Shown here: in pieces, positions 22,753-39,838 of the stretch
How the letters are laid out: each line of letters begins with the position of its first letter
Numbering within the stretch: position 1 is the stretch's first letter
Assembly (NCBI GenBank): GCA_964195975.1
Contig: CAXMQZ010000126.1
Location: 14,985-78,984, forward strand
Direction of reading: 5' to 3'
Length of the DNA stretch: 64,000 bases
Source: an uncultured Polyangiaceae bacterium
GTDB taxonomy: Bacteria > Acidobacteriota > Thermoanaerobaculia > Multivoradales > JAHEKO01
Notes under the pieces: model-generated
Database searches by the model: none
Told to the model about the DNA's origin: nothing
The model's input: the letters and a program-made list of their open reading frames with translations, nothing else
Translations under genes and position numbers: made by a program

Positions 22753-22765
22753 GAAACGCAGCAAA

Positions 22766-24034
22766 TTGGCAGTCATAAAACGAAAAATCGGTCTCTCGTT
22801 GGGTGCGGATATCTGTTGGCCGATTTGCTTCGAGCAGGTCATTCGCAATCTGGATCTCAAAGTCCAAAGTGGCAACGACGAAATCCAGGTCGAGGTCGAG
22901 CGCCTGACGATCGAACCCTTCAACCTGAGGCAGTCCTGTCGCTACGACGTTGTCGTTGACCGTTTGACTCACTGGTATCACCTGAGCCGGGAGTGGATCA
23001 AAAAGGCGGTCATCATGGATGGCCTCTATGTATTCAACAATCCATGGACGCTCCAATCCATGGAAAAGCACACGTCGTACTGCGCCATGATGAGGCTGGG
23101 TCTTCCCGTTCCCGACACCTGGATGGTTCCACCCAAAGAGTACGAGCCCTTTGGTGATCTCGAGCCGACGCTTCAGCAGTACGCCAGAATGTTCGACCTC
23201 GGTGAAGTCGGCGAGGAGCTCGGTTTCCCCATGTTCATGAAGCCCTACGACGGTGGCGCGTGGGTCGGCGTCAGCAAGATCGACTCGAATGATCAACTGA
23301 GAGCAGCCTATGAGCAAAGTGGCAGCCGGGTGATGCATCTGCAGCGGGCGATCGACCCGCACGATCTATTTGTTCGCTGTCTCGGCGTCGGGCCCCAGGT
23401 AAACATGATCTCCTACGATCCCTCGGCTCCGCTGCATGAGCGCTATCAGGTCGGCTTCGAGGTGGTCGATGGGGAGGAATGGTCGCTGCTTGAAGACATG
23501 GCACTGACGATCAACGGCTTTTTCGGCTGGGATTTCAACTCGTGTGAAGCCTTGCGACAAGACGGGGTCTTTTATCCGATCGATTTCGCCAACGCCTGCC
23601 CCGATTCGCAGGTGACTTCTCTTCATTTTCATTTCCCGTGGCTGATTACCGCGAAAGTCCGCTGGGCTCTGTTTTGTGCCGTTACCGACCGCAAGATGCC
23701 CATGACTCTCGACTGGGACGCCTATTTCGAGATAGCCGATCGTGATCTCCCCTACCGAGAGCGGCTGCGCGAGTACGCATCCATTTCTCGCCAGCGATTC
23801 GAGAGCGACAAATTCGACAGGTTCTGCGCCGACCACCTATCAAATCTGGACGAGGTAGTTTGGGAGTTCTTTGGCACCGAGCAGGCCAAAGAGGCGGTTC
23901 GACTCAAAGTGGAGGCCCTGTTCCCTGGTCATGAAGTGGATGAGTACACCGAACATTTCTGGGGACTCATTCAGTTTTGGCGCAAGACTGAAGCCGACAG
24001 GTTGGAAAAGTCGGAATCGATCACCGGAGAATAG
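22766..24034 (+). CDS. ATP-grasp-fold domain protein (putative amide/peptide ligase)
   Basis: The central region FPMFMKPYDGGAWVGVSKIDS and the later DFANACPD resemble ATP-grasp nucleotide and Mg-binding elements. The start is uncertain: TTG at 22766 (used here), TTG at 22799, and in-frame GTG codons upstream back to 22634 (the 5' end of the track ORF, which then overlaps the esterase). Confidence 0.45.
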   Translation: MAVIKRKIGLSLGADICWPICFEQVIRNLDLKVQSGNDEIQVEVERLTIEPFNLRQSCRYDVVVDRLTHWYHLSREWIKKAVIMDGLYVFNNPWTLQSMEKHTSYCAMMRLGLPVPDTWMVPPKEYEPFGDLEPTLQQYARMFDLGEVGEELGFPMFMKPYDGGAWVGVSKIDSNDQLRAAYEQSGSRVMHLQRAIDPHDLFVRCLGVGPQVNMISYDPSAPLHERYQVGFEVVDGEEWSLLEDMALTINGFFGWDFNSCEALRQDGVFYPIDFANACPDSQVTSLHFHFPWLITAKVRWALFCAVTDRKMPMTLDWDAYFEIADRDLPYRERLREYASISRQRFESDKFDRFCADHLSNLDEVVWEFFGTEQAKEAVRLKVEALFPGHEVDEYTEHFWGLIQFWRKTEADRLEKSESITGE

Positions 24035-24036
24035 GT

Positions 24037-24765
24037 GTGAAGGACGGTTCGAGTTGGTACTCCGAGCGGCTGCAGCAGCAAATGCGAGTCGTACGCTGGG
24101 GACACTACGGCACCCCAGTCCTACTTTTCCCCACGGCTGGCGGTGATGCAGAGGAGTGCGAGCGCTTTGAAATGATCGAGGCGCTTGAACCCTTGATCAC
24201 CGAAGGCAAAATCAAGGTCTACTCCGTCGACAGCATCGCAGGGGCTGCCTGGGTCTCGGACCATCATGGCCCTCTGCACTGTGCCTGGCTACAAAACCAG
24301 TTCGACGCCGCGATCTACCATGAGGTGGTTCCCTCTATCCGAATGGACTGCCAAGATCCACGAATCGAGATCGTCGCCGCCGGAGCCTCGGTGGGCGCTT
24401 TCAACTCGGTCGCTTCGGTCTGCCGCCATCCCGATGTCTTTTCAGGCGCAATCGCCATGAGCGGCACCTATGATCTGACCGAGTGGCTCCATGGCGAGTG
24501 GAGCGACGACTTCTATTACTCTTCCCCGATTCACTATCTGCCAGGTCTTGAAGAGGGCGAACAGCTGCACCGCCTGCGCCAGCGGTTCATCTTTCTTCCG
24601 ACAGGAGAAGGCCGGTGGGAGGACCCTCAGCAGTCGTGGCGAATGGCCGAAGTTCTCGGTTCGAAAGGCATCCCCAATCGAGTCGAGTCATGGGGTCCGG
24701 AATGGGATCATGACTGGCCGACCTGGCGAGTCATGCTGCCCAAGTATCTTGCCGAGCTAGCCTAG
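24037..24765 (+). CDS. Esterase-family alpha/beta hydrolase
   Basis: It has VLLFPTAGGD and the serine-nucleophile motif GASVGAFNS. It lies 2 nt downstream of the ATP-grasp gene. Confidence 0.55.
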   Translation: MKDGSSWYSERLQQQMRVVRWGHYGTPVLLFPTAGGDAEECERFEMIEALEPLITEGKIKVYSVDSIAGAAWVSDHHGPLHCAWLQNQFDAAIYHEVVPSIRMDCQDPRIEIVAAGASVGAFNSVASVCRHPDVFSGAIAMSGTYDLTEWLHGEWSDDFYYSSPIHYLPGLEEGEQLHRLRQRFIFLPTGEGRWEDPQQSWRMAEVLGSKGIPNRVESWGPEWDHDWPTWRVMLPKYLAELA

Positions 24766-25728
24766 GAGCCCCAAGGCAAGTACTTGGCTCAACGCATCGA
24801 GACTCAGCCGAGCGCCACTCAAGATCAAAACCACAGTCTTGCCTTCGAAGCGCTGCCTGGACTTCAGAAGAGCCGCGACCGAAAGGGCCGCAGCTCCTTC
24901 GATCAGCAGGTGGTGTTTGGTCAATATCTCGGCGATAGCGTGCACGATCTCGTCTTCCTCGACCAGAATAAAGTCATCGATCACCTCTTGACAGATCGGA
25001 AAGGTCAGCGAGTCGACTTCGATGCCTCCAGCGGTTCCGTCGGCCAGGGTGGGCTGCGAGGCCAGGTCGAGGATCTTGCCAGCCTCGAGGGACTCGTACA
25101 TCACTTTGGAATTGACCGGTTGGCAACCGACAATCTCGATCGAGCTGTCGGCTGCTTTCAGATAGCCAGCGACACCGGCGGCAAGACCACCACCACCGAC
25201 CGGGATGAGCACGGTATCGATCCGCTCGAGCTGGCCTTCGAGCTCCAGACCGATCGTTCCCTGTCCTCCGATAATTTTTTCGTCGTTGTAGGGCGACACA
25301 AAGACTCGACCCGAGTCCTCGGCTACTTGGCGGGCAAAAACCTCGGTTTCGATGCCATCCTTGCCAAAAAACTTCAGCTCAGCGCCATACCGCTCGAGCG
25401 CTCCAATCTTGGCTTTGGACGCCGTCTCGGGTAGATAGATGACACCCGGCCAGCCGAATCTGCGCAGCAGATAGGCGACCGCAGAACCGTGGTTGCCGGA
25501 GGAGGCGGTAACGACACCCTTGGAGCGCTCCTCTTCGCTCAGCGATAGCATCCTGTTCGCCGCACCCCTGAGCTTGAAAGAACTCGTGGCCTGTAAGTTC
25601 TCGAGCTTTAGATAGACTTCGCAGCCCGCCCGATCACCGAGCCAGATCGACTCCTCAACCGGTGTGCGACGAATGTGCTCACGGATCCGCCCTTCCGCCT
25701 CCAGGACCTCTGTACGCACATCGATCAC
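24757..25728 (-). CDS. PLP-dependent threonine/serine dehydratase family enzyme
   Basis: The lysine motif SSFKLRGA and the Gly-rich loop GGGGLAAGVA are present. It is 323 aa. Confidence 0.8.
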   Translation of the reverse strand: MIDVRTEVLEAEGRIREHIRRTPVEESIWLGDRAGCEVYLKLENLQATSSFKLRGAANRMLSLSEEERSKGVVTASSGNHGSAVAYLLRRFGWPGVIYLPETASKAKIGALERYGAELKFFGKDGIETEVFARQVAEDSGRVFVSPYNDEKIIGGQGTIGLELEGQLERIDTVLIPVGGGGLAAGVAGYLKAADSSIEIVGCQPVNSKVMYESLEAGKILDLASQPTLADGTAGGIEVDSLTFPICQEVIDDFILVEEDEIVHAIAEILTKHHLLIEGAAALSVAALLKSRQRFEGKTVVLILSGARLSLDALSQVLALGLLG

Positions 25729-26122
25729 TTCTGTGCCCAGGCTCGAGTTGTGCTTCGAGGGAATCGACGGGCTTGTTCTTCGGATATGGTCAACTGAAGC
25801 TGCTGCTCCTGAGCGGACTCTGTTCGTTTTCGATAGGCAAATTGTATACGGTCACTCACGAGGTCTACCCCCGTGCTTGCGTTCTCGGCGCGGTTACGCT
25901 ATCTTCGCCAACTTGGACATGATCTCGCACAACGGTTTCGCTGGGCGTATGTCCGCACCTCCCAAGAGGCAATTCCCAATCAGCTAGAACTTCTTATCAG
26001 TCAGTATCTGCTTCCCGACTGTTATTCTCGGCAGGGAGGCCTGATTGCCGCGAGAATCGCGGTCCTTTCTTTTCCACGTGTCCGGCGGGTAGAGATTTGT
26101 ACAACCCCGGACCAGGAAAAAC

Positions 26123-27457
26123 ATGAAAGAACACGCACAGGCGCGCCGCGCGCGCGCCCAAGATTCCACACCGCAGTCGCAACCCCAGCTACCGCAGGGC
26201 GTCTTTGGATGCTTGATTCCAGAGCTTCAGCGGGCCGTAGCCGCCGAGGGATACATCACCCCCACACCTATCCAGGAGCAGTGCATTTCGCACCTGCTGA
26301 ATGGACGCGACCTGCTGGGCACCGCCCAGACCGGCACCGGCAAGACTGCGGCATTTATCCTGCCGCTCCTGCAGCGGCTTTCCAAGGACTCCCGACGGCC
26401 CCGGAGAGGAGTCCCCAGGGCCCTCATTCTCGCGCCCACCCGCGAGCTCGCAGCGCAGATCGGCGAGAGCATCCGTACCTATGGACGCTTTCTACACATC
26501 AGGCATACGGTTGTTTTCGGCGGGGTCGGCCAGTTCCCGCAGGTAAACGCCCTGAACCGCGGAGTCGATATCCTCGTGGCCACCCCCGGCCGCCTACTTG
26601 ATTTGATGCAGCAGGGATACATCCACCTCGATGGGGTGGAGGTCTTTATTCTCGATGAGGTGGATCGGATGCTCGATATGGGCTTCCTTCCAGACATCAA
26701 GAGGGTGCTGGCCGCGATTCCGGCCGAGCGACAGACCCTGTTCTTCTCGGCCACTATGGCCCCAAAAATCGAACAGCTGGCCCACACCATGGTCCGCAAC
26801 CCGGTGCGGGTAACCATCGCACCCGACAAACTCGCGGTGGAGCTCATCGCTCAGAAGGTGCTCTTCGTGGGCAAAAAGAACAAGGATGCCCTGTTGATCT
26901 CCCTGATGCGCGACCCCCAGGTCAACAAGGCTCTCATCTTCACCCAGATGAAGCACGTAGCCAATCGGGTAGTGGATAAGCTGGGCGCCGCGGGCATTCA
27001 CGGCGTCGCCATACACGGCAACAAGAGCCAGACTGCGCGAACCAAGGCGCTGGCAGGCTTCAAGCAGGGCCGTGTCCGGGTCTTGGTCGCCACCGATGTG
27101 GCGGCACGAGGGTTGGATGTAGACGACATCACCCACGTGATCAACTACGATCTTCCCGTCGAGGCCGAGACCTACGTGCACCGGATCGGGCGAACCGCCC
27201 GGGCAGGAGCGAACGGCGACGCCATATCACTCTGCAGCGCCGAGGACCGAGCCTATCTGCGGGATATCGAACGCCTGCTAGGCAAGTCGGTACCCGTCGA
27301 GATGGATCACGCCTATCATTGCAACGAGGCCTTCCGGTCTAGCCAGCCCGCTCCAAAGAAGTTCGGTCACGGCAATGGTGGCAAACGGCGGAGCGGACGC
27401 CCCCAGGGCAACTTTCCCCGCGCTCGCAGCAGAAGTCGCAATCGCGGCGGGCGCTGA
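26123..27457 (+). CDS. rhlE: DEAD-box ATP-dependent RNA helicase (RhlE-like) with an Arg-rich C-terminal tail
   Basis: The Q-motif, GTGKTAAF, PTRELA, DEVDRM, SAT and HRIGRTAR motifs are all present. Confidence 0.9.
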   Translation: MKEHAQARRARAQDSTPQSQPQLPQGVFGCLIPELQRAVAAEGYITPTPIQEQCISHLLNGRDLLGTAQTGTGKTAAFILPLLQRLSKDSRRPRRGVPRALILAPTRELAAQIGESIRTYGRFLHIRHTVVFGGVGQFPQVNALNRGVDILVATPGRLLDLMQQGYIHLDGVEVFILDEVDRMLDMGFLPDIKRVLAAIPAERQTLFFSATMAPKIEQLAHTMVRNPVRVTIAPDKLAVELIAQKVLFVGKKNKDALLISLMRDPQVNKALIFTQMKHVANRVVDKLGAAGIHGVAIHGNKSQTARTKALAGFKQGRVRVLVATDVAARGLDVDDITHVINYDLPVEAETYVHRIGRTARAGANGDAISLCSAEDRAYLRDIERLLGKSVPVEMDHAYHCNEAFRSSQPAPKKFGHGNGGKRRSGRPQGNFPRARSRSRNRGGR

Positions 27458-27503
27458 GGCACTGGCAAGGTCGGCGACCGGATCCAATCCGGGCCGCCTG
27501 GTC

Positions 27504-29108
27504 TCAGCTTGCCCCGATCTGGTAGACCTTCTCTGGTTCCAAGGCCACTTCTTTCTGCTCGAGCTCCGCGTCATCTAGTTTGGTCAGATCGGCCGCCGCG
27601 CTTTTCATCTCCTGATGTTCGACGGCTCGGGAGACGACCTCGGCGCGGGTCGCGCCCGAGCTCTTGCCGAGAAACGGCTTGACAAGGAGATGAACCACGT
27701 CGCGGGTTGGCATGTGGCGCATGAAACGACCGATCATTCGCAGGGACTGCACCGGGTAGCGCGCCAGTTTGTACCAGAGTAGGCGTTGCAATTCCTCCGA
27801 TCGAATCCGGTGGATCTCCTCGCCGGGTAGTACCGTGGGATCGATCTCGGAGCACTTGTAGTACTTGTACCAGTCCTTGGAATCGTCCACCAAACCGCGC
27901 TCCAGGTACTCTCCCCACAACGGTGTACCTCGGTAGACGCAGAGCCGATTGAAGCCAAAGCTGTCGATGCGCAATTTGCTGGCAAAGCGGAATGTCTCCC
28001 GCATGTCGTCCTCGGTCTCATCGGGACTGCCCACGACAAAAAACCCGTGCACGATCTCGATTCCGGCCTTCTTTGCTTGATTGACGGCAGTGGCGATCTC
28101 CGCGAGAGTCTGTTTTTTCTTCAGGCGGTCGAGAACCTTTTGGCTCCCACTTTCGATTCCAAACATCAGCGAACGACAACGAGCCTTCGCCATCTTGGGC
28201 AGCATGTCCAGAGAGGGACCCGGATCGACTCGACCCTCACAACCCCATTGGATCTGAATGTCGTTTTCGATCAGGCTGTCGCAGATATCCTCGATGCGTT
28301 TGGGTTGCAGAAGGAAGTGATCGTCTACGAAGTAGACCGCACCGTAGCCAAGCTCCTGGAGGTGTCGAAACTCTCCCAGGACGTGCTCGGCGCTGCGGGA
28401 ACGCCACTTCCCTTCGCTAAATGCCGGAATATCGCAAAAGACACAGGGCCACGGGCATCCGCGCGAGGTCTGCATCGTCGTGTACCGGTCCATGGAGAGC
28501 ACGGCGGGGACATCCAGGGGCATCGACTCGATGAAATCGAGAGGGAGGCTCTCGCGATCGGGATAGGGCCACTGATCGAGATCGTGATCGATCGGCCGCG
28601 GCGGATTGCTAATCACCGTGCCGTTTTTGTCGGACCAGGTCAAACCGGTGACATTCTCGGGGCAATCGAGGTTTTCGAGCAGGTCGAGGATCAGCTGCTC
28701 ACCGTCTCCCCGGCCAACGAAATCGACCTCGGGGCACTGTTTCTTGACGCGCTCGGCGTTGAGAGTGGCAAAAACCCCTCCAAAAGCCAGTGGGATTTCG
28801 GGGGATTCGCGTCGAAGAAGACGTGCCAGAACTTTGGCGTAGGGATAGGAAGTAGTGGACAGGAAGCTCAGCCCTACGAGGTCGGGCTGGATCCGTCGGA
28901 TCTCCTCGACGATGTGCTCGTCCGGCGTATCGGGATTCGCTTGGTCGAACATGGTGCACTCGTGCCCTTCCCGCTTGAGCACTGCTGACAGCGTCATGAT
29001 GCCGATAGGTGGAAAGCCGATGATCTGGGGTAGGTCTCGGATGGACCGCTTGTCGGCTTGGAAGGCGTAGAACTGGGGGTCACGGATGTATATTAGAACG
29101 ACGTGCAC
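27504..29108 (-). CDS. B12-binding radical SAM enzyme (class B)
   Basis: It has an N-terminal cobalamin-binding Rossmann domain and the CPWPCVFC (Cx3Cx2C) radical SAM motif. It is 534 aa. Confidence 0.85.
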   Translation of the reverse strand: MHVVLIYIRDPQFYAFQADKRSIRDLPQIIGFPPIGIMTLSAVLKREGHECTMFDQANPDTPDEHIVEEIRRIQPDLVGLSFLSTTSYPYAKVLARLLRRESPEIPLAFGGVFATLNAERVKKQCPEVDFVGRGDGEQLILDLLENLDCPENVTGLTWSDKNGTVISNPPRPIDHDLDQWPYPDRESLPLDFIESMPLDVPAVLSMDRYTTMQTSRGCPWPCVFCDIPAFSEGKWRSRSAEHVLGEFRHLQELGYGAVYFVDDHFLLQPKRIEDICDSLIENDIQIQWGCEGRVDPGPSLDMLPKMAKARCRSLMFGIESGSQKVLDRLKKKQTLAEIATAVNQAKKAGIEIVHGFFVVGSPDETEDDMRETFRFASKLRIDSFGFNRLCVYRGTPLWGEYLERGLVDDSKDWYKYYKCSEIDPTVLPGEEIHRIRSEELQRLLWYKLARYPVQSLRMIGRFMRHMPTRDVVHLLVKPFLGKSSGATRAEVVSRAVEHQEMKSAAADLTKLDDAELEQKEVALEPEKVYQIGAS

Positions 29109-29217
29109 AAGACCTCCTCGGGTGGGTGGACGATCGTAGTCTATACGAGCACTTCACTCAGCTCCAGGTCGGAGTAGAGCCAACCTTGATCTGGAATCAG
29201 GATATCCTAGTGGGCCG

Positions 29218-30669
29218 ATGGAATTGTTCATGTCACACCTTCCGCCCAGCAAGAGACTGCCGGCTCTGGTAGCGGTGATTTCCGTGATCTTGCTGGCCTC
29301 GGGTTGCTCCCGCGAGCATCCGAAGCCGACCGGGCCCAACATCATTCTTGTCTCGATCGACAGCCTGCGGGCCGCCAATCTGGGTGCTTATGGATACGAG
29401 CGGGACACCACGCCCTTTATCGACTCGCTTGCCAATCGGGGCGTTCGCTTCGAGAACACCATCTCGACCACCTCCTGGACGCTACCAGCCCACGCAGCAC
29501 TGTTTACAGGCCTGTACGACTCGACCCACGGTGTTGTGGACAATGGTAGGAAGTTGGCAGAGCGATTCGTGACGCTGGCGGAGCTGCTCCAAGGTCTGGG
29601 CTACGAGACAGCTGGCTTTTTTGGCGGGCCCTATCTACACCCCGTTTTTGGTCTTGACCAGGGTTTCGACCTCTACCAGAGCTGTATGACCACGACGGAA
29701 GACGATGTCTCGGGAAAGCAGATCGAGCGCCAGGCGCGAATGGCCGATGCACCGAGCCACGACGATGTAACTGGGCCGCGGACGGTGAGCGAGGTCGAAA
29801 AGTGGATCGCGGCGGGCGTCGAACAGCCCTACTTCCTCTTCCTGCACCTCTGGGACGTGCATTACGACTACATCCCGCCCCAGGAGCATCTCGACCTCTT
29901 CGACCCTGATTACACCGGTGACCTTACCGGCGAAGACTTTTCCCAGAACAATGCCGTCAACCCCAAGATGGATCCCCGAGATCTGGAGCATCTGATCGCC
30001 CGATACGATGCCGAAATACGTTTTACCGACACCATTCTGAGTCAAATTATCGATGCTTTGGAGGCCGCGTCGATGATGGAGAGGACCCTGGTGGTGGTCA
30101 CAGCCGACCATGGTGAGGAGTTTTTCGAGCATCAGGGCAAGGGGCACCAGCGCACCTTGTTCGATGAGGTCATCCGAGTACCCTTGATATTCTATTGGCC
30201 AGGCAAACTAGTTCCTGGTCAGGTGATCACAGATCAGGTGCGGTTGATCGACCTTCTTCCCACCCTGGTACGGATCGCCGGCTACGAGGGCCCGCTCGAG
30301 ATCCAGGGTCGCGACCTACGCCCACTGCTCGCCGGGGGCGAGATGGCACAGATCCCAGCCCTGTCGGAGCTGCTCGTCGATGGTGGTTCCATGCGAGCGC
30401 TGCGCACCAATGAGGCTAAGGTCATTCGTTGGTCAAATCGATCGATACCCATTCTGTTTCGGCTAGGTGAGGACCCTGTCGAGATCTGGGCGACCGGTCT
30501 TACCGATGAAGCCTTATCGGACCTGACGCCCGAGGAGCGCTTCCTCGTGACCGAGCTGTTGCGGGCAGAATCAGAAGGCCTTCCGATCGACCAAGAAGGG
30601 GACGGCGCTCTAGAGCTGGACCCGGAAATCCGAAAGCGTCTGGAAAGTCTGGGGTACCTCGATGACTAG
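29218..30669 (+). CDS. Sulfatase-like hydrolase/transferase lipoprotein (alkaline-phosphatase superfamily; no canonical C/SxPxR formylglycine motif)
   Basis: It has a lipobox (LASGC), SIDSLRAANLGAYGY and VTADHGEEF metal-binding regions. Confidence 0.7.
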   Translation: MELFMSHLPPSKRLPALVAVISVILLASGCSREHPKPTGPNIILVSIDSLRAANLGAYGYERDTTPFIDSLANRGVRFENTISTTSWTLPAHAALFTGLYDSTHGVVDNGRKLAERFVTLAELLQGLGYETAGFFGGPYLHPVFGLDQGFDLYQSCMTTTEDDVSGKQIERQARMADAPSHDDVTGPRTVSEVEKWIAAGVEQPYFLFLHLWDVHYDYIPPQEHLDLFDPDYTGDLTGEDFSQNNAVNPKMDPRDLEHLIARYDAEIRFTDTILSQIIDALEAASMMERTLVVVTADHGEEFFEHQGKGHQRTLFDEVIRVPLIFYWPGKLVPGQVITDQVRLIDLLPTLVRIAGYEGPLEIQGRDLRPLLAGGEMAQIPALSELLVDGGSMRALRTNEAKVIRWSNRSIPILFRLGEDPVEIWATGLTDEALSDLTPEERFLVTELLRAESEGLPIDQEGDGALELDPEIRKRLESLGYLDD

Positions 30670-30692
30670 TTTCCACCAGTCGGTTTCGGCCA

Positions 30693-32573
30693 TCATGGCG
30701 AGCGTTTCGACGAGTCAGTGAGTCTCAGGATCATGGTCCAACTCATGAACGTAGGGTCGGCGGGGCCCTCGACTCCGACAAGCTCTACGCGCAGGTAATT
30801 GTCCTGGACCCAGTTGGCCAGTCGCTCACCGTACCCTCGGCCCAGATAGTCGTAGCCGTATTCGGTGGCGCCGCGCCCGGTCATGACGATCCAGTCGGGT
30901 GGTCTCGCGTCGAAAGACTCGACGATGGCGTCCTCGCCGAACATCACCAACTCCGGAGGCATGAAGTTGAAGTACGGCGTCGGACTCTCTCGTCGCAGGA
31001 GGTAGTTGAGCATGACCCCTTCCGGAAGCACGGCCATGGTTTCCCCAGGTAGCAGGAGCTTCTCGAGGCGAGAGAGGGTTTCGGAGACGACTTCGCCGGA
31101 TGCATCGGCAAGAAACGAGTCCCCGCCCGAACCCACCGGTTGGTTCTTGGCGGCATAGTTTCTCGCCGTCAGGCTCAGGTGAAAAGTGGCTACCACGAGA
31201 AAGAAGCCGACCCCTGCCGCCCTGAAAGTGTTGCCGTGCCCACCACGGCGATCGATCCAGCGTGGGATCACGTGCAGTAGCAAAATGATCAAGATCATCG
31301 TGGCCGGTGCGGCCAACACGAATCCGTAGTGGGACAGGCGGACCCTAAACAAGATCTTCAGAAGCATCCCAAAGCTGAAAAGAGTGGCGAGCAGAGGGAG
31401 CATCGTCTGTCGAGACGATGGACCGTCCACAGGCTTGCCAGCGAAGTGTTGGCGGACCAGCGCAATGGCCAGAACGCCGAGAAAGACCGGTAGCGGGCGG
31501 GTTACATCGAGTACCGAAAGTCTCGACAAGATCAAGATAGTGAGCACCACCGTCACGAGGCCTGAAACCGCCGGCAACCAGGATCGGCTGCGGCCTTCAC
31601 TGGTGGACCGACGAGCAAACCAAAAGGCCGGTACAAAGATCAGCAGGTAGGCGAGCAGCCAAACTAGGATCTGCACCAGACTATCCAGCGGATCTAGCAA
31701 TCCCATCCCGCCGCGGTAGAAGTCGAGTCCTTGAAGCTTGCTCGAAAAGGCGTAGCGCCAGGAGCCCAGCACGCCCCGGATTGCCGATGAAGCGGAAGAC
31801 GATGGCAGAAGGAGTAGAAACGCAACCAGCGACGGCAAAGCCATCGCTGCGATCATCAGACCGATCCGCCTGACCCGAGTACCGGGTGAGAGTTGCTGCT
31901 GACGGCCCGACAGCCAAAGTCCGAGAACAACCAGCGGCGCAATCGCCACGAAGAGCTCGCTTTTGGTAAGGAAAACCAGTCCCGTGGCAAGCCCGATGCC
32001 GATAATCGACCAGTGGGTCGGCCGCCTGATGTGCTGGAAAAGCAGTGCCAACGCCACCAGCGCCAGCAGGAACCCATGAGTGATCTCGTGCGAGTAGGGG
32101 GCGATGAAATTGTAGGTGCCCGAACCGGTCGGATCGGCCAGTGCGAAGCAGATCAGGAAAACCGCCGATCCGATGACGGCCGTCGCTATATCACTGAATC
32201 TGGCGATCAACACAACCAGCAGGGCCGTGACTGCGACCAGGACAAGGATGTTCATCCAGACCAGGGTCTGCAGACCGACCCCCACCAACGAGAATCCAAC
32301 AGCGTTCACAAAGGGCGAAAGAGGCCCGTTGAAGTAGGAAAGATCCCTGTAGAGGGCTTTTCCCTCGAGCATCTGCCAGGGCACGTAGAGCTCGCGACCA
32401 AAGTCCACCACCGGGTGGAGCCATTTGCCCCAACTCCACTTCAAGAGGAATCCACCAACGATCAGGCTGGTCAGGGCGGGAAGCAACCACCTGGGCCCGG
32501 TGGAGCTCACAAGATCTGTTTTTCGGTTGGAGAGCATCACAGCCGGGGTAGAGGATATCGAAGTGTTTCGCAC
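30693..32573 (-). CDS. Polytopic membrane protein, putative glycosyltransferase (GT39/ArnT/YfhO-like) with a C-terminal periplasmic domain
   Basis: More than 10 predicted TM helices are followed by a soluble domain of about 200 aa. Its start directly abuts the stop of the upstream FAD oxidoreductase gene. Confidence 0.4.
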   Translation of the reverse strand: MRNTSISSTPAVMLSNRKTDLVSSTGPRWLLPALTSLIVGGFLLKWSWGKWLHPVVDFGRELYVPWQMLEGKALYRDLSYFNGPLSPFVNAVGFSLVGVGLQTLVWMNILVLVAVTALLVVLIARFSDIATAVIGSAVFLICFALADPTGSGTYNFIAPYSHEITHGFLLALVALALLFQHIRRPTHWSIIGIGLATGLVFLTKSELFVAIAPLVVLGLWLSGRQQQLSPGTRVRRIGLMIAAMALPSLVAFLLLLPSSSASSAIRGVLGSWRYAFSSKLQGLDFYRGGMGLLDPLDSLVQILVWLLAYLLIFVPAFWFARRSTSEGRSRSWLPAVSGLVTVVLTILILSRLSVLDVTRPLPVFLGVLAIALVRQHFAGKPVDGPSSRQTMLPLLATLFSFGMLLKILFRVRLSHYGFVLAAPATMILIILLLHVIPRWIDRRGGHGNTFRAAGVGFFLVVATFHLSLTARNYAAKNQPVGSGGDSFLADASGEVVSETLSRLEKLLLPGETMAVLPEGVMLNYLLRRESPTPYFNFMPPELVMFGEDAIVESFDARPPDWIVMTGRGATEYGYDYLGRGYGERLANWVQDNYLRVELVGVEGPADPTFMSWTMILRLTDSSKRSP

Positions 32574-33749
32574 TCAGATGAGAGCGATCTCCGTTATGGG
32601 TCGTCCCTCGACAATACGCTCGGGGCCCAAGATGGAGAGATCGAGCACAGGTTCGATGCCGGTGACAATCTCCGAGATATAACGGCCGACCGCCGGAGCC
32701 TGTTGGAGACCATGACCGGAGAAACCATTCGCCAGATAAAGTCCATCCAGCTCAGGCCAGTGTCCCAGAATGGCATTGCCATCTACGGTGTTGACAGCGT
32801 AGAGACCGCTCCAACCATGAGCTAGCCTTAGACGGTCAAAGGCTGGGACAACGTTGGTGAGCTCAGGCCAGAGGAACTCGTTGAAGCGGTCCTCACTCCA
32901 GGAGAACTCATGGCCGACCGGGTCACTCGCCATGGACTTTCCCACAAGGATGCGGTCATCGCCTTCGCTGCGAAGATAGAGTCCGGAAGGGAAGCTGATC
33001 AGCGGTAGAGGCGAGGTCGGCTTGACTTGTGTTTCTACGAGGAACGCTTGTCTTTGCACCGGATCGACGGGGATCGAAACGCCAGCGGTCTCCAACAGCC
33101 GAGAGGCCCAGGCTCCCGCACAGCAGATCACCGAGCCGGCAGCCAAGTGGGCACCCGACGCGAGTCGAGCTCCGGTAACACGTCGGTCGACCCGGTCCAG
33201 CCCGATGACCTCGTCCGTCAGGTACACAGCGCCAAGCGAGTCTGCCTTGTTGCGGTAGCTCATCAGGAAGGAATACCCATCCAAGTACCCATCCTCGGGC
33301 CCAAAAGTAGCTCCGGAGAATGCGCCAATCTCGAGCAGGGGGAACCGTCTTCCCAACTCGGCGGCATCGATCCATTCGACGTCACAGCCCAACTTCTTCT
33401 GCCGCATCAAGGCAACTCTCGCTGAGTGACGGCTCTGCTCGTCTACGACAAACAAATTGCCCTGAGGATGGAAGCCGAGATCGGGGGCAATACCATCGAC
33501 TGCCATCTCTTCGCCAAAGGTCGATAGGATTTCCAGGGTGTGTTGGGAGATCTGGATATTACGCTCGAGGTTGAATTGAACCCTGACGTTCCCGACAGAT
33601 AGAGCACTCGAAGCCTGTCGATAGGTCGGATCCCTTTCGACCACCGCCACCGTGAGCTCCGGGTCGGCCCGGCGGAGATGGTAGGCACACGACGACCCGA
33701 TCACGCCACCACCGACGATAATCACATCGAATGACCGCTCGCTATTCAA
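32574..33749 (-). CDS. FAD-dependent oxidoreductase (DAO family; glycine/sarcosine/D-amino-acid oxidase-like)
   Basis: The N-terminal motif is VIIVGGGVIGSSCAYHL. It is 391 aa. Confidence 0.75.
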   Translation of the reverse strand: MNSERSFDVIIVGGGVIGSSCAYHLRRADPELTVAVVERDPTYRQASSALSVGNVRVQFNLERNIQISQHTLEILSTFGEEMAVDGIAPDLGFHPQGNLFVVDEQSRHSARVALMRQKKLGCDVEWIDAAELGRRFPLLEIGAFSGATFGPEDGYLDGYSFLMSYRNKADSLGAVYLTDEVIGLDRVDRRVTGARLASGAHLAAGSVICCAGAWASRLLETAGVSIPVDPVQRQAFLVETQVKPTSPLPLISFPSGLYLRSEGDDRILVGKSMASDPVGHEFSWSEDRFNEFLWPELTNVVPAFDRLRLAHGWSGLYAVNTVDGNAILGHWPELDGLYLANGFSGHGLQQAPAVGRYISEIVTGIEPVLDLSILGPERIVEGRPITEIALI

Positions 33750-33792
33750 GGCTCGAGCTCCGACTGTTCCAAACTAGCCACGACTGGTGAGA

Positions 33793-34452
33793 CTACTCCG
33801 CTTCGAATCCGGCCGCCGCGTGGGAGCCGTCACAATAGGGTCTATTTCGAGAGGCGCCACAACGACACAGCGCGCCCTTGACCCCACTTTGGGCGTCGGT
33901 ACCGTCGGCGGATCGAATCTCGATCGGGCCCTTGACCAGCAGGGGACCGTTTGGCGCGCTCGAGAGCTCGAGCCGTGCACCTGGGTCATCTCCTTCTCCC
34001 GGTGCCAGCATCGCCGTACCGAGAGAGCCATCGTCCGTGAATCCGGCCTCGATATGGCCGTTGTCACAATACGGTTTGTTCTTGGAATCGCCACATCGAC
34101 AGAGAGCAACACGATTCTCACTCCCCAGGGCTCCGTTTGGGAACTTGAAAACGATCTTACCTTCGACATAGACCGGTCCGTCCACGACCAGCCGGGCAAC
34201 GTTGGAGCTGGGAATCGGCTCTGCGTCTCCGCCATCCGTCCGCTCGTAGTGCAAGGCGCCGGTCGGACAATCCCAAACCACCCTCGCGACCTCATCTGCA
34301 TCAACCTGATCAGGCTCGATCCAAGGCCTTCGATTTGGGTCGAATGCTTCGGGTGATCCGTGCACGCACTTCTCCGCATGAATACACCGTGCTCGATCCC
34401 AACGGACAATCACATCCGCCCCTTCGAACTCGTAGATCTTCTTCTTCGACAT
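33793..34452 (-). CDS. Iron-sulfur protein with an N-terminal divergent 4Fe-4S domain and two CDGSH-type motifs
   Basis: The two motifs are CRCGDSKNKPYCDNGH and CRCGASRNRPYCDGSH. I placed the start at the internal ATG at 34452 (MSKKK), which is preceded by GGAGGG at a 6-nt spacing. The track ORF extends to 34656. Confidence 0.75.
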   Translation of the reverse strand: MSKKKIYEFEGADVIVRWDRARCIHAEKCVHGSPEAFDPNRRPWIEPDQVDADEVARVVWDCPTGALHYERTDGGDAEPIPSSNVARLVVDGPVYVEGKIVFKFPNGALGSENRVALCRCGDSKNKPYCDNGHIEAGFTDDGSLGTAMLAPGEGDDPGARLELSSAPNGPLLVKGPIEIRSADGTDAQSGVKGALCRCGASRNRPYCDGSHAAAGFEAE

Positions 34453-34667
34453 CAGTGACCCTCCATCTGCCTTGGGTAGGTCCTCAGGTAGATATTCACG
34501 CTGGTGCGCCTTTGTCTGCTCTCTTGCGACTCGACGGAAAGCATATCGATTCGTCGCATCACCTGCTTGGGCTCTTGATCGTATCCGGCTTGGTCGACGG
34601 AGACGGGTGAGATAGGGTCTCCTTCGACCACGGGATTCGCCGGGCAACAGACCCACCGGCGATCAAT

Positions 34668-35999
34668 ATGACCGGGAGAGACGAACAAATGTTTCGGATA
34701 GTCACAATTTTGATGATGCTGATCGGCCTCGGCCTGCCATCCGTATCGTTGGCAGAAGGCTTGACCGCGATCGAGAAACGAATAGTCGAACGGGTAGATA
34801 GCAAGGCCCACGAAGCGGAAATTTTTCTCGAGAGGGTGGTAAACATCAATAGTGGAACAATGAATCACTCGGGTGTCCGGGAGGTCGGCGCATTATACGA
34901 CCGCGAGCTCTCTGAGATCGGATTTCAGACCCGTTGGATCGAGATGCCCAAAGAGATGGCGAGAGCCGGACACCTGTTCGCCGAAATTGACGGTTCTGAG
35001 GGAGATCGCGTCCTGCTGATCGGTCACCTCGACACCGTGTTCGAGCCCGATAGCCCCTTTCAGACGTTCACTCGAAAGGGTGACCTTGCCTACGGCCCCG
35101 GCACTGAGGACATGAAAGGCGGCAATACGGTCATCCTCTTTGCCCTCGAGGCGCTGCACGAGGTAGGCGCACTGCAAGGAAGCCGCATCATCGTGGCTCT
35201 TACCGGAGACGAGGAGATGCCAGGCTCACCCCTGGAAATCGCTCGCAAAGACCTGCTCGAAGCCGGTCGGCGAGCCGACTTTGCACTTGGATTCGAGGCT
35301 GGCGTAAGAGACATCCACACCGCCACCGTGGCCAGGCGAGGCTCGAGCAGCTGGTCTCTTCGTGTCACCGGGACACCCGCTCACTCGTCCCAGGTTTTCG
35401 AAGATTCGATCGGTGCCGGAGCCATTTATGAAGCGAGTAGAATTCTCGACGCTTTCTACTCTCAAATCAGGGGTGAGAAGTATCTGACGTTTAATCCCGG
35501 GGTGATTTTGGGAGGAACAACAGTCGACTACGACCCCGAGGAACACCGGGGCTCTGCGTTTGGCAAATCGAATGTCATTGCCGAGACCGCTGTGATCGAC
35601 GGAGACCTGAGGTTCATCTCCGAAGATCAGAAAGAGCGTGCTCGTGAGCGGATGCGCGCCATCGTGGCCCAATCGGCCCCTGGTGCCAGCGCCGAGATCA
35701 CCTTCCGCGACGGGTACCCCGCCATGTCACCCACCGCTGGAAATGAGAAGCTACTAGGCAGGTTTCAATCGGTCAGCCTCGACCTCGGTTTCGGATCGCT
35801 CGAACCACTCGATCCGAGCCAGCGAGGCGCCGCCGACATCTCTTTCGTAGCCGCAGACGTCCAAGGATCCCTCGCTGGTCTAGGGCCTGTGGGGTGGTAC
35901 GGTCACACGGTCGAAGAGCGCATCGATATCGCCACCATGTCGGTGGTCACAAAGAAGGCGGCAATCTTGATCCACCGCCTCACACATCAATTGGACTAG
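34668..35999 (+). CDS. M20-family metallopeptidase (carboxypeptidase-G2-like), secreted
   Basis: It has a signal peptide, and the HLDTV, GTEDMKGG and GDEE metal-binding motifs. Confidence 0.8.
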   Translation: MTGRDEQMFRIVTILMMLIGLGLPSVSLAEGLTAIEKRIVERVDSKAHEAEIFLERVVNINSGTMNHSGVREVGALYDRELSEIGFQTRWIEMPKEMARAGHLFAEIDGSEGDRVLLIGHLDTVFEPDSPFQTFTRKGDLAYGPGTEDMKGGNTVILFALEALHEVGALQGSRIIVALTGDEEMPGSPLEIARKDLLEAGRRADFALGFEAGVRDIHTATVARRGSSSWSLRVTGTPAHSSQVFEDSIGAGAIYEASRILDAFYSQIRGEKYLTFNPGVILGGTTVDYDPEEHRGSAFGKSNVIAETAVIDGDLRFISEDQKERARERMRAIVAQSAPGASAEITFRDGYPAMSPTAGNEKLLGRFQSVSLDLGFGSLEPLDPSQRGAADISFVAADVQGSLAGLGPVGWYGHTVEERIDIATMSVVTKKAAILIHRLTHQLD

Positions 36000-36009
36000 G
36001 GTTAGTTCG

Positions 36010-36861
36010 ATGGACAGTCAAGGAATCATTCAGTCGATATTCGGAGTCCCCCGCGCCCTCATCGGCATGGTGCATCTCGGTGCGTTGCCGGGAACGCCTT
36101 CCAATACGGATCGATTGTCCGAGATCTGCCGAGCAGCGGTTGCCGAAGCTAAACAGCTTCGAGAGACCGGTTTCAACGCAATCATGTTGGAAAACATGCA
36201 CGATCGTCCCTATCTCAAACGGCAAGTCGGACCTGAGATCGTAGCCAGCATGGCGGTGGTCGGACAGGCGATTCAGGCAGAAAGCGGTCTACCCACGGGT
36301 ATCCAGGTCCTCGGCGGAGCCAATCACGAGGCACTGGCCGTCGCACAAGCTTGCGGCGGAAGCTTCATCCGAGCTGAGGCTTTTGTCTTTGCTCACGCCG
36401 CCGACGAAGGGTTGATGGAAGCCGACGCCGGAGACCTTCTCCGGTATCGCAAAGCCATCGGGGCAGACGACATCAAGATCTTCACCGACATCAAAAAGAA
36501 ACATGCATCCCACGCCTTGACCGCGGATGTCGATCTTGCCGAGACCGCTCGAGCCGCGGAATTCTTTCTGGCCGACGGAGTAGTAGTCACCGGGACCGCC
36601 ACTGGCAGAAGCGCCAACCCGAAGGAGGTCGAGATCATTCGACAGGCCGTCACCATTCCGACTTTGGTTGGCTCGGGTCTAAACCCCGAGAATCTCGCTC
36701 AATTTGCCAGAGCCGATGGGTTTATCGTCGGCTCCTCGTTCAAGCAAGATGGTCTCTGGTCGAACTCGCAAGACACCGCTCGCATGGAGACCCTGGTCAA
36801 GGCCTTCGAGGCCCTCGAGCCCCTGCAAGTCGAAACCCGCAAGGCTCATTCCGCAGAATGA
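36010..36861 (+). CDS. BtpA/SgcQ-family TIM-barrel protein
   Basis: The N-terminal region ALIGMVHLGALPGTP and overall similarity match BtpA family proteins. Confidence 0.65.
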   Translation: MDSQGIIQSIFGVPRALIGMVHLGALPGTPSNTDRLSEICRAAVAEAKQLRETGFNAIMLENMHDRPYLKRQVGPEIVASMAVVGQAIQAESGLPTGIQVLGGANHEALAVAQACGGSFIRAEAFVFAHAADEGLMEADAGDLLRYRKAIGADDIKIFTDIKKKHASHALTADVDLAETARAAEFFLADGVVVTGTATGRSANPKEVEIIRQAVTIPTLVGSGLNPENLAQFARADGFIVGSSFKQDGLWSNSQDTARMETLVKAFEALEPLQVETRKAHSAE

Positions 36862-37760
36862 CTCCCGATCTGGTTGTGTTAGGCAATCTCGCGGTCGACG
36901 ACATCGTCTATCCCGACGGCGAGAGTCGCATGGGACAGCCTGGCGGTGCGGCCATCTATGTCGCACTCGGGGCGAATCTTTGGGGACTGAATGTCGGCAT
37001 GGTCTCGAGGGTTGGGAGCGACTACCCTTCCTCGATGCTCGAGGCGCTATCCCGGAAGGGAATCGACCTTGCGGGCATCCGGGAGCTCGGATCGTCTGGA
37101 TTGCGTACCTGGCTGCTGTATGAAGGCGAGCTTCGAAGGGTTGTCCATAGGCTCGACAGCGCGACTCACGCCGAGGCCTCACCAACCGCTGACGAAATAC
37201 CGACCGAGTGGACTCCCCGAGCACTTCATATCGCTCCTCTGCCAATCGGTCTTCAAGCCGAGCTGGTGGCAGAGTTCGTCGAGCAGGCGGACGTCATCGT
37301 GTCGGTCGACCCCTACGAGTTACTTTCGGAGAGGACGCTCGAGACCTGGACTGGAATCGGATCGCAGGTCGACTACTTCTTCCTCAGTGAGGACGAGATT
37401 GCCGACGGGCAGTGGCGTCGGGACCCCGGGCCTCTTGTCGCCAGGATCACGGCCGGTAGATTGAAAACCCTCTTCTACAAACAGGGGTCGATGGGAGGGA
37501 CGGGTTTCGAGGCGACCACCGGGCGTAGATTCAAATGGAGCAGCTATGCCACAACCGTTGTCGACCAGACCGGTGCGGGTGACGCCTTTGCCGGTGGAAC
37601 CCTGGCCGGGTTGCTACAAGGCGACGGTGTCCAGACCGCGGTACACCGAGGGGTTGTCAGCGCCAGTTTTGCACTGGAGTCCCAGGGTGCCGACGCTCTT
37701 CTGGAGGCAAGGCCTGAGATGGCAAATGAGCGTTTGAGAGGATGGTTCGGAGACCTATGA
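36858..37760 (+). CDS. psuK: PfkB-family carbohydrate kinase, probable pseudouridine kinase
   Basis: The PfkB signature DQTGAGDAFAGG is present. It overlaps the downstream psuG by 19 nt, as in psuK-psuG operons. Confidence 0.65.
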   Translation: MTPDLVVLGNLAVDDIVYPDGESRMGQPGGAAIYVALGANLWGLNVGMVSRVGSDYPSSMLEALSRKGIDLAGIRELGSSGLRTWLLYEGELRRVVHRLDSATHAEASPTADEIPTEWTPRALHIAPLPIGLQAELVAEFVEQADVIVSVDPYELLSERTLETWTGIGSQVDYFFLSEDEIADGQWRRDPGPLVARITAGRLKTLFYKQGSMGGTGFEATTGRRFKWSSYATTVVDQTGAGDAFAGGTLAGLLQGDGVQTAVHRGVVSASFALESQGADALLEARPEMANERLRGWFGDL

Positions 37761-38659
37761 GACATCTCTCCATTTCTCCCGACATCGCTTCCGCTCTAGA
37801 GTCAGGCAAACCAGTGGTGGCGCTTGAAACCACTCTTGTCACGCATGGGTTCCCTCACCCAGAGGGTCTAGAGATCGCGCTGGAACTCGAACAGGCCATC
37901 CGCACTGAAGGTGCAACTCCGGCCACGATAGGGGTCCTTGACAGCAGCCTTAGAGTCGGCATCAGCGCCGATGAGCTCGAGACTCTGGCTCAGGCCCGAT
38001 CGGTGCCAAAGCTCAATCCAAGCAACCTCGCCGCAGGAATTACGACAGTGGGTATCGGGTCGACCACCGTCGCGGCGACGATGGTCGCAGCTCACCTCAC
38101 AGGAATTCACGTCTTCTCCACTGGAGGGATCGGGGGGGTGCACCGTAACGTCGCTGACACTGGTGACATTTCAGCCGACCTCATGGCACTCGGCCGCTTC
38201 CCGGTCGCTGTGGTTTGCGCCGGGGCCAAGGCGGTGCTCGATCTGCCCAAGACGGTAGAAGCTCTCGAGACTCACGGGGTTCCCATCTTCGGCGTAGGCA
38301 CTGATCGATTCCCGGCGTTTTATCGGCGGGACAGCGGGGTTCCGATCGACCAGGGATTCAACGACATCTCGCATTTGGCGAAGGCCGTCAGCGCCCACTT
38401 CGAGCTCGACATCGGTTCGGGCGTGGTAGTTGCCAACCCGATCCCCTTCGAGGCCGAGATGCCTGAGGAACTTTACGAGACCAGTCTCGAGCGGTCGCTC
38501 GAAGACCTGGCTTCGAGTGGCGTTCGGGGTCGCGAGGTCACACCCTATCTTCTGGAAAGGCTCCGTTTGCTGACCAAGGGAGAGAGTGTTTTTTCCAACC
38601 GCGCTCTGCTTCTCCACAATGCCAAGATCGCAGCGAGACTGGCAGTCGCCCTCGAGTGA
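37742..38659 (+). CDS. psuG: Pseudouridine-5'-phosphate glycosidase
   Basis: This is an indigoidine-synthase-A-like fold protein of 305 aa with GGIGGVHRN and VVCAGAKAVLDLPKTVE regions. Confidence 0.8.
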   Translation: MVRRPMRHLSISPDIASALESGKPVVALETTLVTHGFPHPEGLEIALELEQAIRTEGATPATIGVLDSSLRVGISADELETLAQARSVPKLNPSNLAAGITTVGIGSTTVAATMVAAHLTGIHVFSTGGIGGVHRNVADTGDISADLMALGRFPVAVVCAGAKAVLDLPKTVEALETHGVPIFGVGTDRFPAFYRRDSGVPIDQGFNDISHLAKAVSAHFELDIGSGVVVANPIPFEAEMPEELYETSLERSLEDLASSGVRGREVTPYLLERLRLLTKGESVFSNRALLLHNAKIAARLAVALE

Positions 38660-38672
38660 GGGATTCCGCCCG

Positions 38673-39695: not shown

Positions 39696-39838
39696 CGACC
39701 GGACCCTTCCTTTAAACGAGCGCAAACAATGAGGGGACATTCTACGCTTTCCGAATCCGACTTCTAATCAGAATCGAACATCTAACAGACAATTTCTTCG
39801 CTTTGCGGCTACACTCCCCTCCCGAGAGAAAACTACCG

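Follow-up and report, generated by a model that had tools for sequence, protein, structure and literature searches.

We analysed a 64,000-nucleotide stretch of DNA (hereafter the window; contig CAXMQZ010000126.1, positions 14,985 to 78,984) from the metagenome-assembled genome of an uncultured bacterium of the Acidobacteriota (class Thermoanaerobaculia), and in particular four genes that all fit within 6.2 kb of it. A model-made annotation drawn from the letters alone (the sequence-only reading) had proposed that these four open reading frames (ORFs) form one pathway for the decoration of membrane lipid. We favour instead, with moderate confidence, the view that the region is a mosaic. Its parts would be a facultative envelope module consisting of a sulfatase-fold lipoprotein (SULF) and a GT-C fold membrane protein (GTC), an orphan radical SAM gene (rSAM), and a unit comprising the gene for a DAO-family flavin adenine dinucleotide (FAD) oxidoreductase (DAO), a CDGSH iron-sulfur protein gene and the gene for a pyridoxal 5′-phosphate (PLP) enzyme. 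SULF and GTC probably act together on the cell envelope. The four genes are as follows.

27504-29108, minus strand: rSAM, predicted class B radical SAM enzyme, 534 amino acids (PF02310 and PF04055)
29218-30669, plus strand: SULF, sulfatase-fold lipoprotein, 483 amino acids (PF00884 and PF01663)
30693-32573, minus strand: GTC, predicted GT-C fold membrane glycosyltransferase, 626 amino acids (model fold; PF13231 matches in its family)
32574-33749, minus strand: DAO, DAO-family FAD oxidoreductase, 391 amino acids (PF01266)

The rSAM and SULF genes are divergent with a spacer of 109 bp, SULF and GTC are convergent with a spacer of 23 bp, and the DAO stop codon directly meets the GTG start of GTC if the longest possible GTC frame is taken; an alternative ATG start 12 codons downstream would leave a gap of 36 nucleotides (nt) to DAO. 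Both the ORFs and this geometry are as the sequence-only reading had described them.

The strongest single evidence for a functional link between SULF and GTC is a set of natural fusions. Among the best 120 long SULF homologs, on which our survey of that family is based, 17 carry PF13231 (PMT_2) and PF00884 (Sulfatase) together, and the order, with PMT_2 at the N-terminus and the sulfatase domain at the C-terminus, was confirmed by Pfam in all 8 that were checked. All 17 possess the motif WTLP[AS]H with its threonine. The best fusions are 47-48% identical to SULF and are thus as close to it as the free-standing orthologs, whilst the N-terminus of one of them (P0308) matches the GTC-family profile (hhalign, 94.6%).

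The same two families are also found as neighbouring genes. SULF orthologs with 52-54% identity directly adjoin GTC-family genes on three metagenomic contigs, convergently at L137 and in tandem at L160 and L168, and all three carry the WTLP[AS]H motif. The remaining genes of these contigs (Ser/Thr kinase, P-type ATPase, GDSL lipase) are unlike those of the window. Moreover, each of the three GTCs concerned belongs to a different well-supported clade, whereas the SULFs group in a single one. The SULF orthogroup has 10 members, again in a single clade (SH-aLRT 95-98%), with members found in six genomes when we anchored on SULF, and it occurs in 5 of the 301 genomes of the phylum. Wherever the two families were seen together they were adjacent. 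In a further genome (G081) the SULF ortholog overlaps by 4 nt the gene for a 668-amino-acid GT-C protein with PMT_2 (64 bits) and TPR domains, and more distant SULF/GTC pairs occur as divergent neighbours in the same-genus genome G001 and at L134. Sulfatase-like genes lie near GTC-family genes at 8 other loci, in 5 of which they are directly adjacent. Taken together, the recurrent adjacency and the fusions suggest that SULF and GTC share an envelope substrate. This pair is what can be kept of the proposed lipid-decoration pathway; synteny removes rSAM and DAO from it. A literature search on PMT_2/GT39 together with sulfatase returned colistin-resistance papers only.

SULF itself matches PF00884 with 162.9 bits and PF01663 (Phosphodiest) with 65 bits. 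Its signal peptide ends in a lipobox-like LLASG-C and is followed by no further transmembrane segments. The sequence-only reading had called it a sulfatase-superfamily lipoprotein that lacks the formylglycine motif, and this description was borne out: T88-L-P-A-H92 replaces the S1 signature C/S-x-P-x-R, with Thr for Cys and His for Arg. In an alignment to PDB entry 7stt (98 bits) the nucleophile position is occupied by Thr88, and every one of the best PDB relatives is an S1 sulfatase or a phosphonate monoester hydrolase. SULF shares with the S1 sulfatases the fold, the N-terminal PF00884 domain and an SGSH_C-like C-terminal subdomain; of the signature it keeps P-[SA] and TG, and of the metal site the D...DH residues. 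It departs from them at the formylglycine Cys/Ser, which is Thr, and at the Arg, which is His, and both replacements are likewise seen in 118 of the 120 long homologs and in nearly all of the genomic paralogs. Residues D48, T88, D297, H298 and H310 are all kept and are at least 98% conserved across the 120. In the genome that carries the window (G000), all but three of approximately 30 sulfatase-fold paralogs likewise carry Thr, in the pattern T-x-P-[SA]...TG. With Thr at the formylglycine position, SULF is not a formylglycine sulfatase. A Thr nucleophile in an alkaline-phosphatase-superfamily fold is a hallmark of phosphoryl-transfer enzymes (NPP, EptA, LtaS). Therefore, phosphoryl-transfer chemistry is expected of SULF, not sulfate hydrolysis, and it is a putative membrane-tethered periplasmic phosphoesterase or phosphotransferase.

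By the same token, the label 'sulfatase' is probably wrong for many genes of these Acidobacteriota, and the recurrent adjacency and fusion suggest that many genes so annotated in these phyla encode phospho-enzymes. A first look at relatives in the same class gave 20-70 sulfatase-like candidates per genome. Genes with a formylglycine-generating enzyme domain do exist in G000, although these are uninformative on Thr-type proteins. Approximately one third of the long SULF homologs (among P0259, P0270 and P0284-P0362) are fusions of a sulfatase-like domain to TPR, whilst PF03706 (LPG_synthase_TM) is present in four and GT1 domains in one; these fusions suggest protein or lipid substrates in the envelope for the family. 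Near the closest SULF paralog within G000, genes for a CotH kinase, a DUF4956 protein and a VTC-domain protein stand in a row (contig C147; L215, 1977-5162), possibly a polyphosphate-related cluster.

GTC has approximately 11 hydrophobic segments. The protein itself gives no Pfam match at E<0.01, whilst PF13231 matches 25 of 28 members of its family with a best E of 4e-12. An AlphaFold2 model was obtained with high confidence (pLDDT, the predicted local distance difference test score, 90.2; pTM, the predicted template modelling score, 0.91). A Foldseek search with this model returned ArnT (5f15) first, with an E of 4e-7, and ranks 1-37 were all GT-C enzymes; further matches included STT3, AglB, PglB, DPY19 and AftA, and these hits, ArnT included, all had a probability of 1.00. 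The GT-C-like topology that had been read from the letters is thus upheld by the model. Two acidic residues, D57 and E61, are invariant in the 28 sequences and lie in the loop VDFGRELYVPW between helices 1 and 2, where they may be catalytic. Residues 478-618 of the model form a compact alpha/beta C-terminal domain. No NCBIfam family, the ArnT models included, is matched at E<0.01. The family is large, with no fewer than 1,633 cluster representatives scoring E<=1e-30, and uniform in length, the best 150 spanning 569-699 amino acids. It is rare in the phylum (7/301 genomes). We therefore assign GTC, on profile and model, to an uncharacterised PMT_2/ArnT-like subfamily of approximately 600 amino acids with the GT-C fold and a predicted glycosyltransferase activity.

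The neighbours of GTC-family genes elsewhere were examined in approximately 90 loci besides the window; counting the window, 80 of 91 loci had a flank of at least 1.5 kb on one side. A GT2 gene of approximately 240 amino acids stands beside the GTC-family gene in 9 of these and falls in the size class of polyprenyl-phosphate sugar synthases, and PMT_2-TPR paralogs are found in 7. The window has no GT2 gene; homologs of the GTC-flanking GT2 are found elsewhere in G000. In 12 loci (for example L127-L130, L143, L148 and L189) the start of the GTC-family gene is overlapped by the gene for a 6-transmembrane protein of approximately 572 amino acids, and two T2SS-F/Tad genes and a DUF192-PEMT fusion lie upstream of the latter; hhalign ruled out that this protein is itself a GT-C. 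A second GTC paralog in G000 (C12:79260-80948; L009) is 44% identical to that of the window and is convergent with the gene for a 546-amino-acid, 12-transmembrane protein, which is followed by that for a 271-amino-acid, 9-transmembrane protein. In the tree, this paralog is closer than the window GTC to the single GTC of G002, the other same-genus genome.

The domains, folds, Thr motif, synteny counts and fusions are observed; for the chemistry, the acceptor in the periplasm and the sequence of steps we infer a scheme along the following lines. GTC would take a sugar from a polyprenyl-phosphate carrier and attach it, at the periplasmic face, to an acceptor, as ArnT and PMT do. SULF, lipid-anchored in the periplasm, would remove or transfer a phosphate-linked group, and its target may be the same acceptor as that of the GT-C or else the lipid-linked substrate or product of the latter. 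It could clear phosphate before the sugar is added, add a phospho-group to the glycan, or process the lipid carrier. Both enzymes would serve one envelope glycoconjugate, and in other bacteria a single fused protein would hold both activities.

Such a pairing has parallels in known systems. In Proteobacterial lipid A modification, ArnT (GT83) and EptA/PmrC represent a GT-C enzyme using a polyprenyl-phosphate-sugar and a Thr enzyme of the alkaline-phosphatase superfamily that act on one envelope molecule at the periplasmic face, and ArnT is the top structural match of the window GTC. However, GTC has no match to the ArnT NCBIfam models, no arn genes are present in the window and its neighbours are SULF and DAO. 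The sequence-only reading had likened SULF to EptA, MdoB or LtaS. The likeness extends to the Thr nucleophile in an alkaline-phosphatase-superfamily domain and no further: EptA, LtaS and OpgB have an N-terminal multi-helix membrane domain (of 5 helices in EptA), whereas SULF is a soluble lipoprotein. Moreover, SULF falls far below the family cut-offs (EptA 42 bits against 561, CptA 39 against 404 and LtaS 20.6 against 970) and is nearest by sequence to the S1 sulfatases. We know of no EptA fused to ArnT. In the lipoteichoic acid system of Firmicutes, LtaS with CsbB/GtcA/YfhO combines a Thr enzyme of the same superfamily, a GT-C and a GT2 on one extracytoplasmic polymer, which recalls the GT2 genes flanking GTC-family genes. 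That system is Gram-positive, however, its LtaS has a membrane domain, and the window lacks both a GtcA-type gene and a GT2. Lastly, GTC shares the PMT_2 core and an acidic motif in the first periplasmic loop with bacterial PMT_2-TPR proteins and with eukaryotic PMT/TMTC (GT39/GT105). PMT_2-TPR proteins flank GTC-family genes in the 7 loci mentioned and a SULF ortholog in G081, but GTC has its compact alpha/beta domain where PMT_2-TPR and PMT proteins have TPR or MIR domains. That the SULF-GTC module is a new variant of the ArnT/EptA and YfhO/LtaS theme is reasonably supported.

A bolder extension is that PMT_2 GT-C domains and WTLPxH Thr sulfatase-fold domains make up a widespread, uncharacterised envelope-modifying machine that may be fused or split. 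Here, the GT-C-type domain would present a polyprenyl-phosphate-linked donor, and the Thr of the alkaline-phosphatase-superfamily domain would pass a phosphate-containing group, for instance a sugar-phosphate or a different phospho-substituent, to an acceptor in the envelope. We regard this as speculative and rather improbable. If true, periplasmic phospho-form transfer would have a new architecture, different from those of EptA, LtaS and OpgB. The module in any case provides a lead on two large uncharacterised families, namely the GT-C subfamily of approximately 600 amino acids and, greatly multiplied in Acidobacteriota, the Thr-type 'sulfatase-like hydrolase/transferase' proteins.

Within G000 there is a second link of Thr-type sulfatase-like enzymes to polyprenyl-sugar genes, in an operon on another contig (C78:48230-58600; L214, 4230-14599). 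This operon contains MurB and a gene for a soluble Thr-type sulfatase-like protein of 495 amino acids, next the gene for an 815-amino-acid protein with approximately 7 transmembrane helices and a C-terminal sulfatase domain, and then genes for a GT2, a 183-amino-acid protein with 2 transmembrane segments, MoxR, DUF58 and TgpA. The GT2 is 57% identical to the GT2 that flanks GTC-family genes.

Several observations weigh against a SULF-GTC module and suggest that the two genes may be neighbours by chance. SULF has approximately 30 sulfatase-fold paralogs in G000 detectable by tblastn and scattered over the genome (for example on C3, C162, C96, C58 and C156), which makes a chance neighbour likelier. 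The two genes are convergent in the window, so that they are not co-transcribed. Outside the window a SULF ortholog stands beside only 3 of the approximately 90 GTC loci, most of which have no sulfatase-like neighbour at all, and these three cases came from anchoring on GTC and therefore represent a biased sample of SULF orthologs. In five genomes (G017, G178, G041, G440 and G544; 93-100% complete) the SULF ortholog has a gene for an MFS transporter, peptidase or aconitase as its neighbour, and no GTC-family member was found at E<=1e-10, profile search included. Thus SULF does not need this GT-C, and the link is facultative. As for the fusions, the GT-C domain of P0254 has no detectable similarity to the window GTC, and the GTC subfamily itself is never fused among its best 150 representatives. 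Moreover, the window SULF has Ala53 (window 29374-29376) where all 9 orthologs and 99% of the 120 homologs have Asp. This position lies in an R-x-D motif just past the first metal-binding Asp; the change could reflect relaxed constraint, a change of specificity or a sequencing error. The 551-amino-acid, 6-transmembrane protein encoded beside the SULF ortholog of G544 and a 1171-amino-acid ORF in G178 were ruled out as GT-C proteins by hhalign.

These points would fit an explanation in which all four genes are unrelated and SULF, as one of about 30 periplasmic phosphoesterases or sulfatase-like hydrolases, serves to scavenge nutrients and is unconnected to the GT-C. We consider this unlikely, though it is the rival to be taken most seriously. 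A rare orthogroup lies beside GTC on three more contigs, for which chance was estimated to give far less than one event, and in these cases the orientations differ and the flanks are unrelated. Furthermore, there are 17 natural fusions with the same Thr motif. We therefore retain the mosaic with its facultative SULF-GTC module, in which the rSAM gene would merely be next door.

The rSAM was correctly recognised by the sequence-only reading as a class B enzyme. An N-terminal B12-binding domain (PF02310, 77.6 bits against a cut-off of 32.1) spans residues 33-140, the radical SAM core matches PF04055 with 95.8 bits, and the motif C218-x3-C222-x2-C225 (CxxxCxxC) has its three cysteines invariant across 23 sequences of the family. 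A model of the protein (pLDDT 73.7) gave OxsB, AprD4, MgmA, CysS, TsrM and TokK as the best Foldseek matches (E 1e-16 to 1e-19). On domains and model, the rSAM is assigned to the class B, cobalamin-binding radical SAM enzymes, with a predicted use of cobalamin. No NCBIfam equivalog cut-off is reached, as the scores in bits against cut-offs show: BchE 162/481, ApyD 157/750, HpnJ 154/578, PhpK 133/600, ladderane 112/360 and HpnR 86/650. What is shared with BchE, HpnJ and ApyD (in hidden Markov model, HMM, searches) and with OxsB, AprD4 and MgmA (in fold) is the B12-binding domain and the radical SAM core; the rSAM has no conserved pathway neighbours and no conserved precursor peptide. By these scores the window rSAM appears to lie outside every lipid-linked class B family scored, and a place among the lipid-modifying class B enzymes, as had been suggested, is not borne out for HpnJ, HpnR, ladderane or BchE.

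Conservation within the family to which it does belong far exceeds that of its link to any named class B family. The best 120 database matches are 68-96% identical, the mean column identity in an alignment of 23 sequences is 70%, and identities of 66-75% hold across at least 8 phyla; its members come from Acidobacteriota, Nitrospirota, Binatota, NC10, Planctomycetota, Verrucomicrobiota, delta- and betaproteobacteria and Margulisiibacteriota. It occurs at no fewer than 556 loci in species-representative genomes, of which 80 were sampled with flanks of up to 10 kb on each side (81 loci with the window). None of the 80 has a homolog of SULF, GTC or DAO within 10 kb, and this includes L029, where the rSAM is 88% identical. 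All-versus-all clustering of the flanking ORFs gave no neighbour family in more than 12 of the 81 loci. The recurring neighbours are Nitrospira-specific housekeeping genes, namely sucCD, a FAD_binding_2 flavoprotein gene and the aconitase gene, plus metK and ahcY, which in Nitrospira lie a few kb from the rSAM. A pairing with a precursor of a ribosomally synthesised and post-translationally modified peptide was rejected, as a search of the 700 nt around the gene in the 80 loci gave no conserved small-ORF family. Also rejected was a recently transferred single-gene island: the guanine plus cytosine (GC) content of the gene tracks that of its flanks (73 loci, r = 0.92, slope 0.64). In the tested loci, therefore, the high identity reflects purifying selection and not recent spread, and the family appears from its sequences to be under very strong purifying selection without conserved partners. 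Searches of the two same-genus genomes, G001 and G002 (96% and 88% complete), did not find the rSAM, but three further genera of the family carry it. Searches of Protein Atlas and the literature returned no characterised member; papers on Mss, Tes and Gms do not cover this family. Thus the rSAM is a stand-alone gene of a very conserved family, outside the SULF-GTC module; on the bolder reading given above, it would be a broadly conserved enzyme with a function that is probably housekeeping-like.

These results bear directly on the four-gene pathway, in which rSAM, SULF, GTC and DAO would together methylate or cross-link and then decorate a membrane lipid. The close packing of the genes, the divergent starts of rSAM and SULF and the abutment of DAO on GTC on the same strand speak for it, as does the weak HMM similarity of the rSAM to HpnJ, HpnR and the ladderane radical SAM enzyme. 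However, the cut-offs of the lipid families are missed three- to seven-fold, none of the rSAM loci has any of the partners, and in 0 of 9 other SULF-orthogroup loci is there a nearby homolog of the window rSAM or DAO. In the same genus, the syntenic region keeps DAO alone of the four, and no close DAO homolog lies near the GTC loci. The pathway thus fell on synteny; we consider it very improbable and not worth carrying forward, which saves follow-up effort. Least probable of all is that the rSAM is a maturase of the divergent SULF by analogy with the anaerobic sulfatase-maturating enzymes (anSMEs), an established class of radical SAM sulfatase maturases: despite the shared 109-bp spacer, SULF has Thr, whereas an anSME oxidises Cys or Ser, no SPASM domain was matched in the rSAM, and the pairing recurs in none of the 80 rSAM loci and no other SULF-orthogroup locus. 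anSMEs are SPASM-type, not B12-type, radical SAM enzymes.

To compare the setting of the four genes, 16 window proteins were searched by tblastn in the regions of G001 (L200, L201) and G002 (L204) that are syntenic to it. The features that this comparison adds to the list are given below.

26123-32573: variable segment of DEAD helicase, rSAM, SULF and GTC genes, between the PLP gene and the DAO/CDGSH pair
33793-34656, minus strand: CDGSH and Fer4_19 iron-sulfur protein (PF09360, 108 bits; PF06902, 70 bits)
34668-35999: M20 peptidase gene

In G001 and G002 the backbone runs in the order est1, ATP-grasp, est2, the PLP enzyme, CDGSH/Fer4_19, DAO, BtpA and PsuK. In the window the PLP gene is separated from the DAO/CDGSH pair, and the backbone thus broken, by the DEAD helicase, rSAM, SULF and GTC genes, none of which was found by tblastn in the fetched syntenic regions of G001 and G002. 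On the mosaic reading, this 6.4-kb variable segment would have landed beside the DAO/CDGSH/PLP unit. An Rfam scan of 22000-40000 gave no match, including no B12 or other riboswitch, and promoter and terminator scans of the region gave nothing informative.

The DAO protein matches PF01266 with 215 bits over residues 8-360, and both its nature as an FAD oxidoreductase and the abutment of its gene on that of the membrane protein had been rightly called from the letters. Its best equivalog is ThiO (107 bits against a cut-off of 251), and no equivalog cut-off is reached. Orthologs in G001 and G002 are approximately 61-65% identical, and CDGSH adjoins DAO in both; the order of the two is swapped in the window, where they are still on the same strand. 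A distance of 380 kb separates the DAO homolog of G001 from its GTC homolog, and around the approximately 90 GTC loci the only DAO match is a weak one (25% identity, approximately 7 kb off). Therefore, the DAO-GTC junction is local to this genome. The M20 peptidase gene has no counterpart in the fetched G001 and G002 regions and is an extra insertion in the window; the arrangement M20-BtpA-PsuK-PsuG is not conserved within the genus. From its gene order, DAO appears to belong with the genus-conserved CDGSH and PLP unit and not with GTC, and this unit probably serves amino-acid or amine oxidation.

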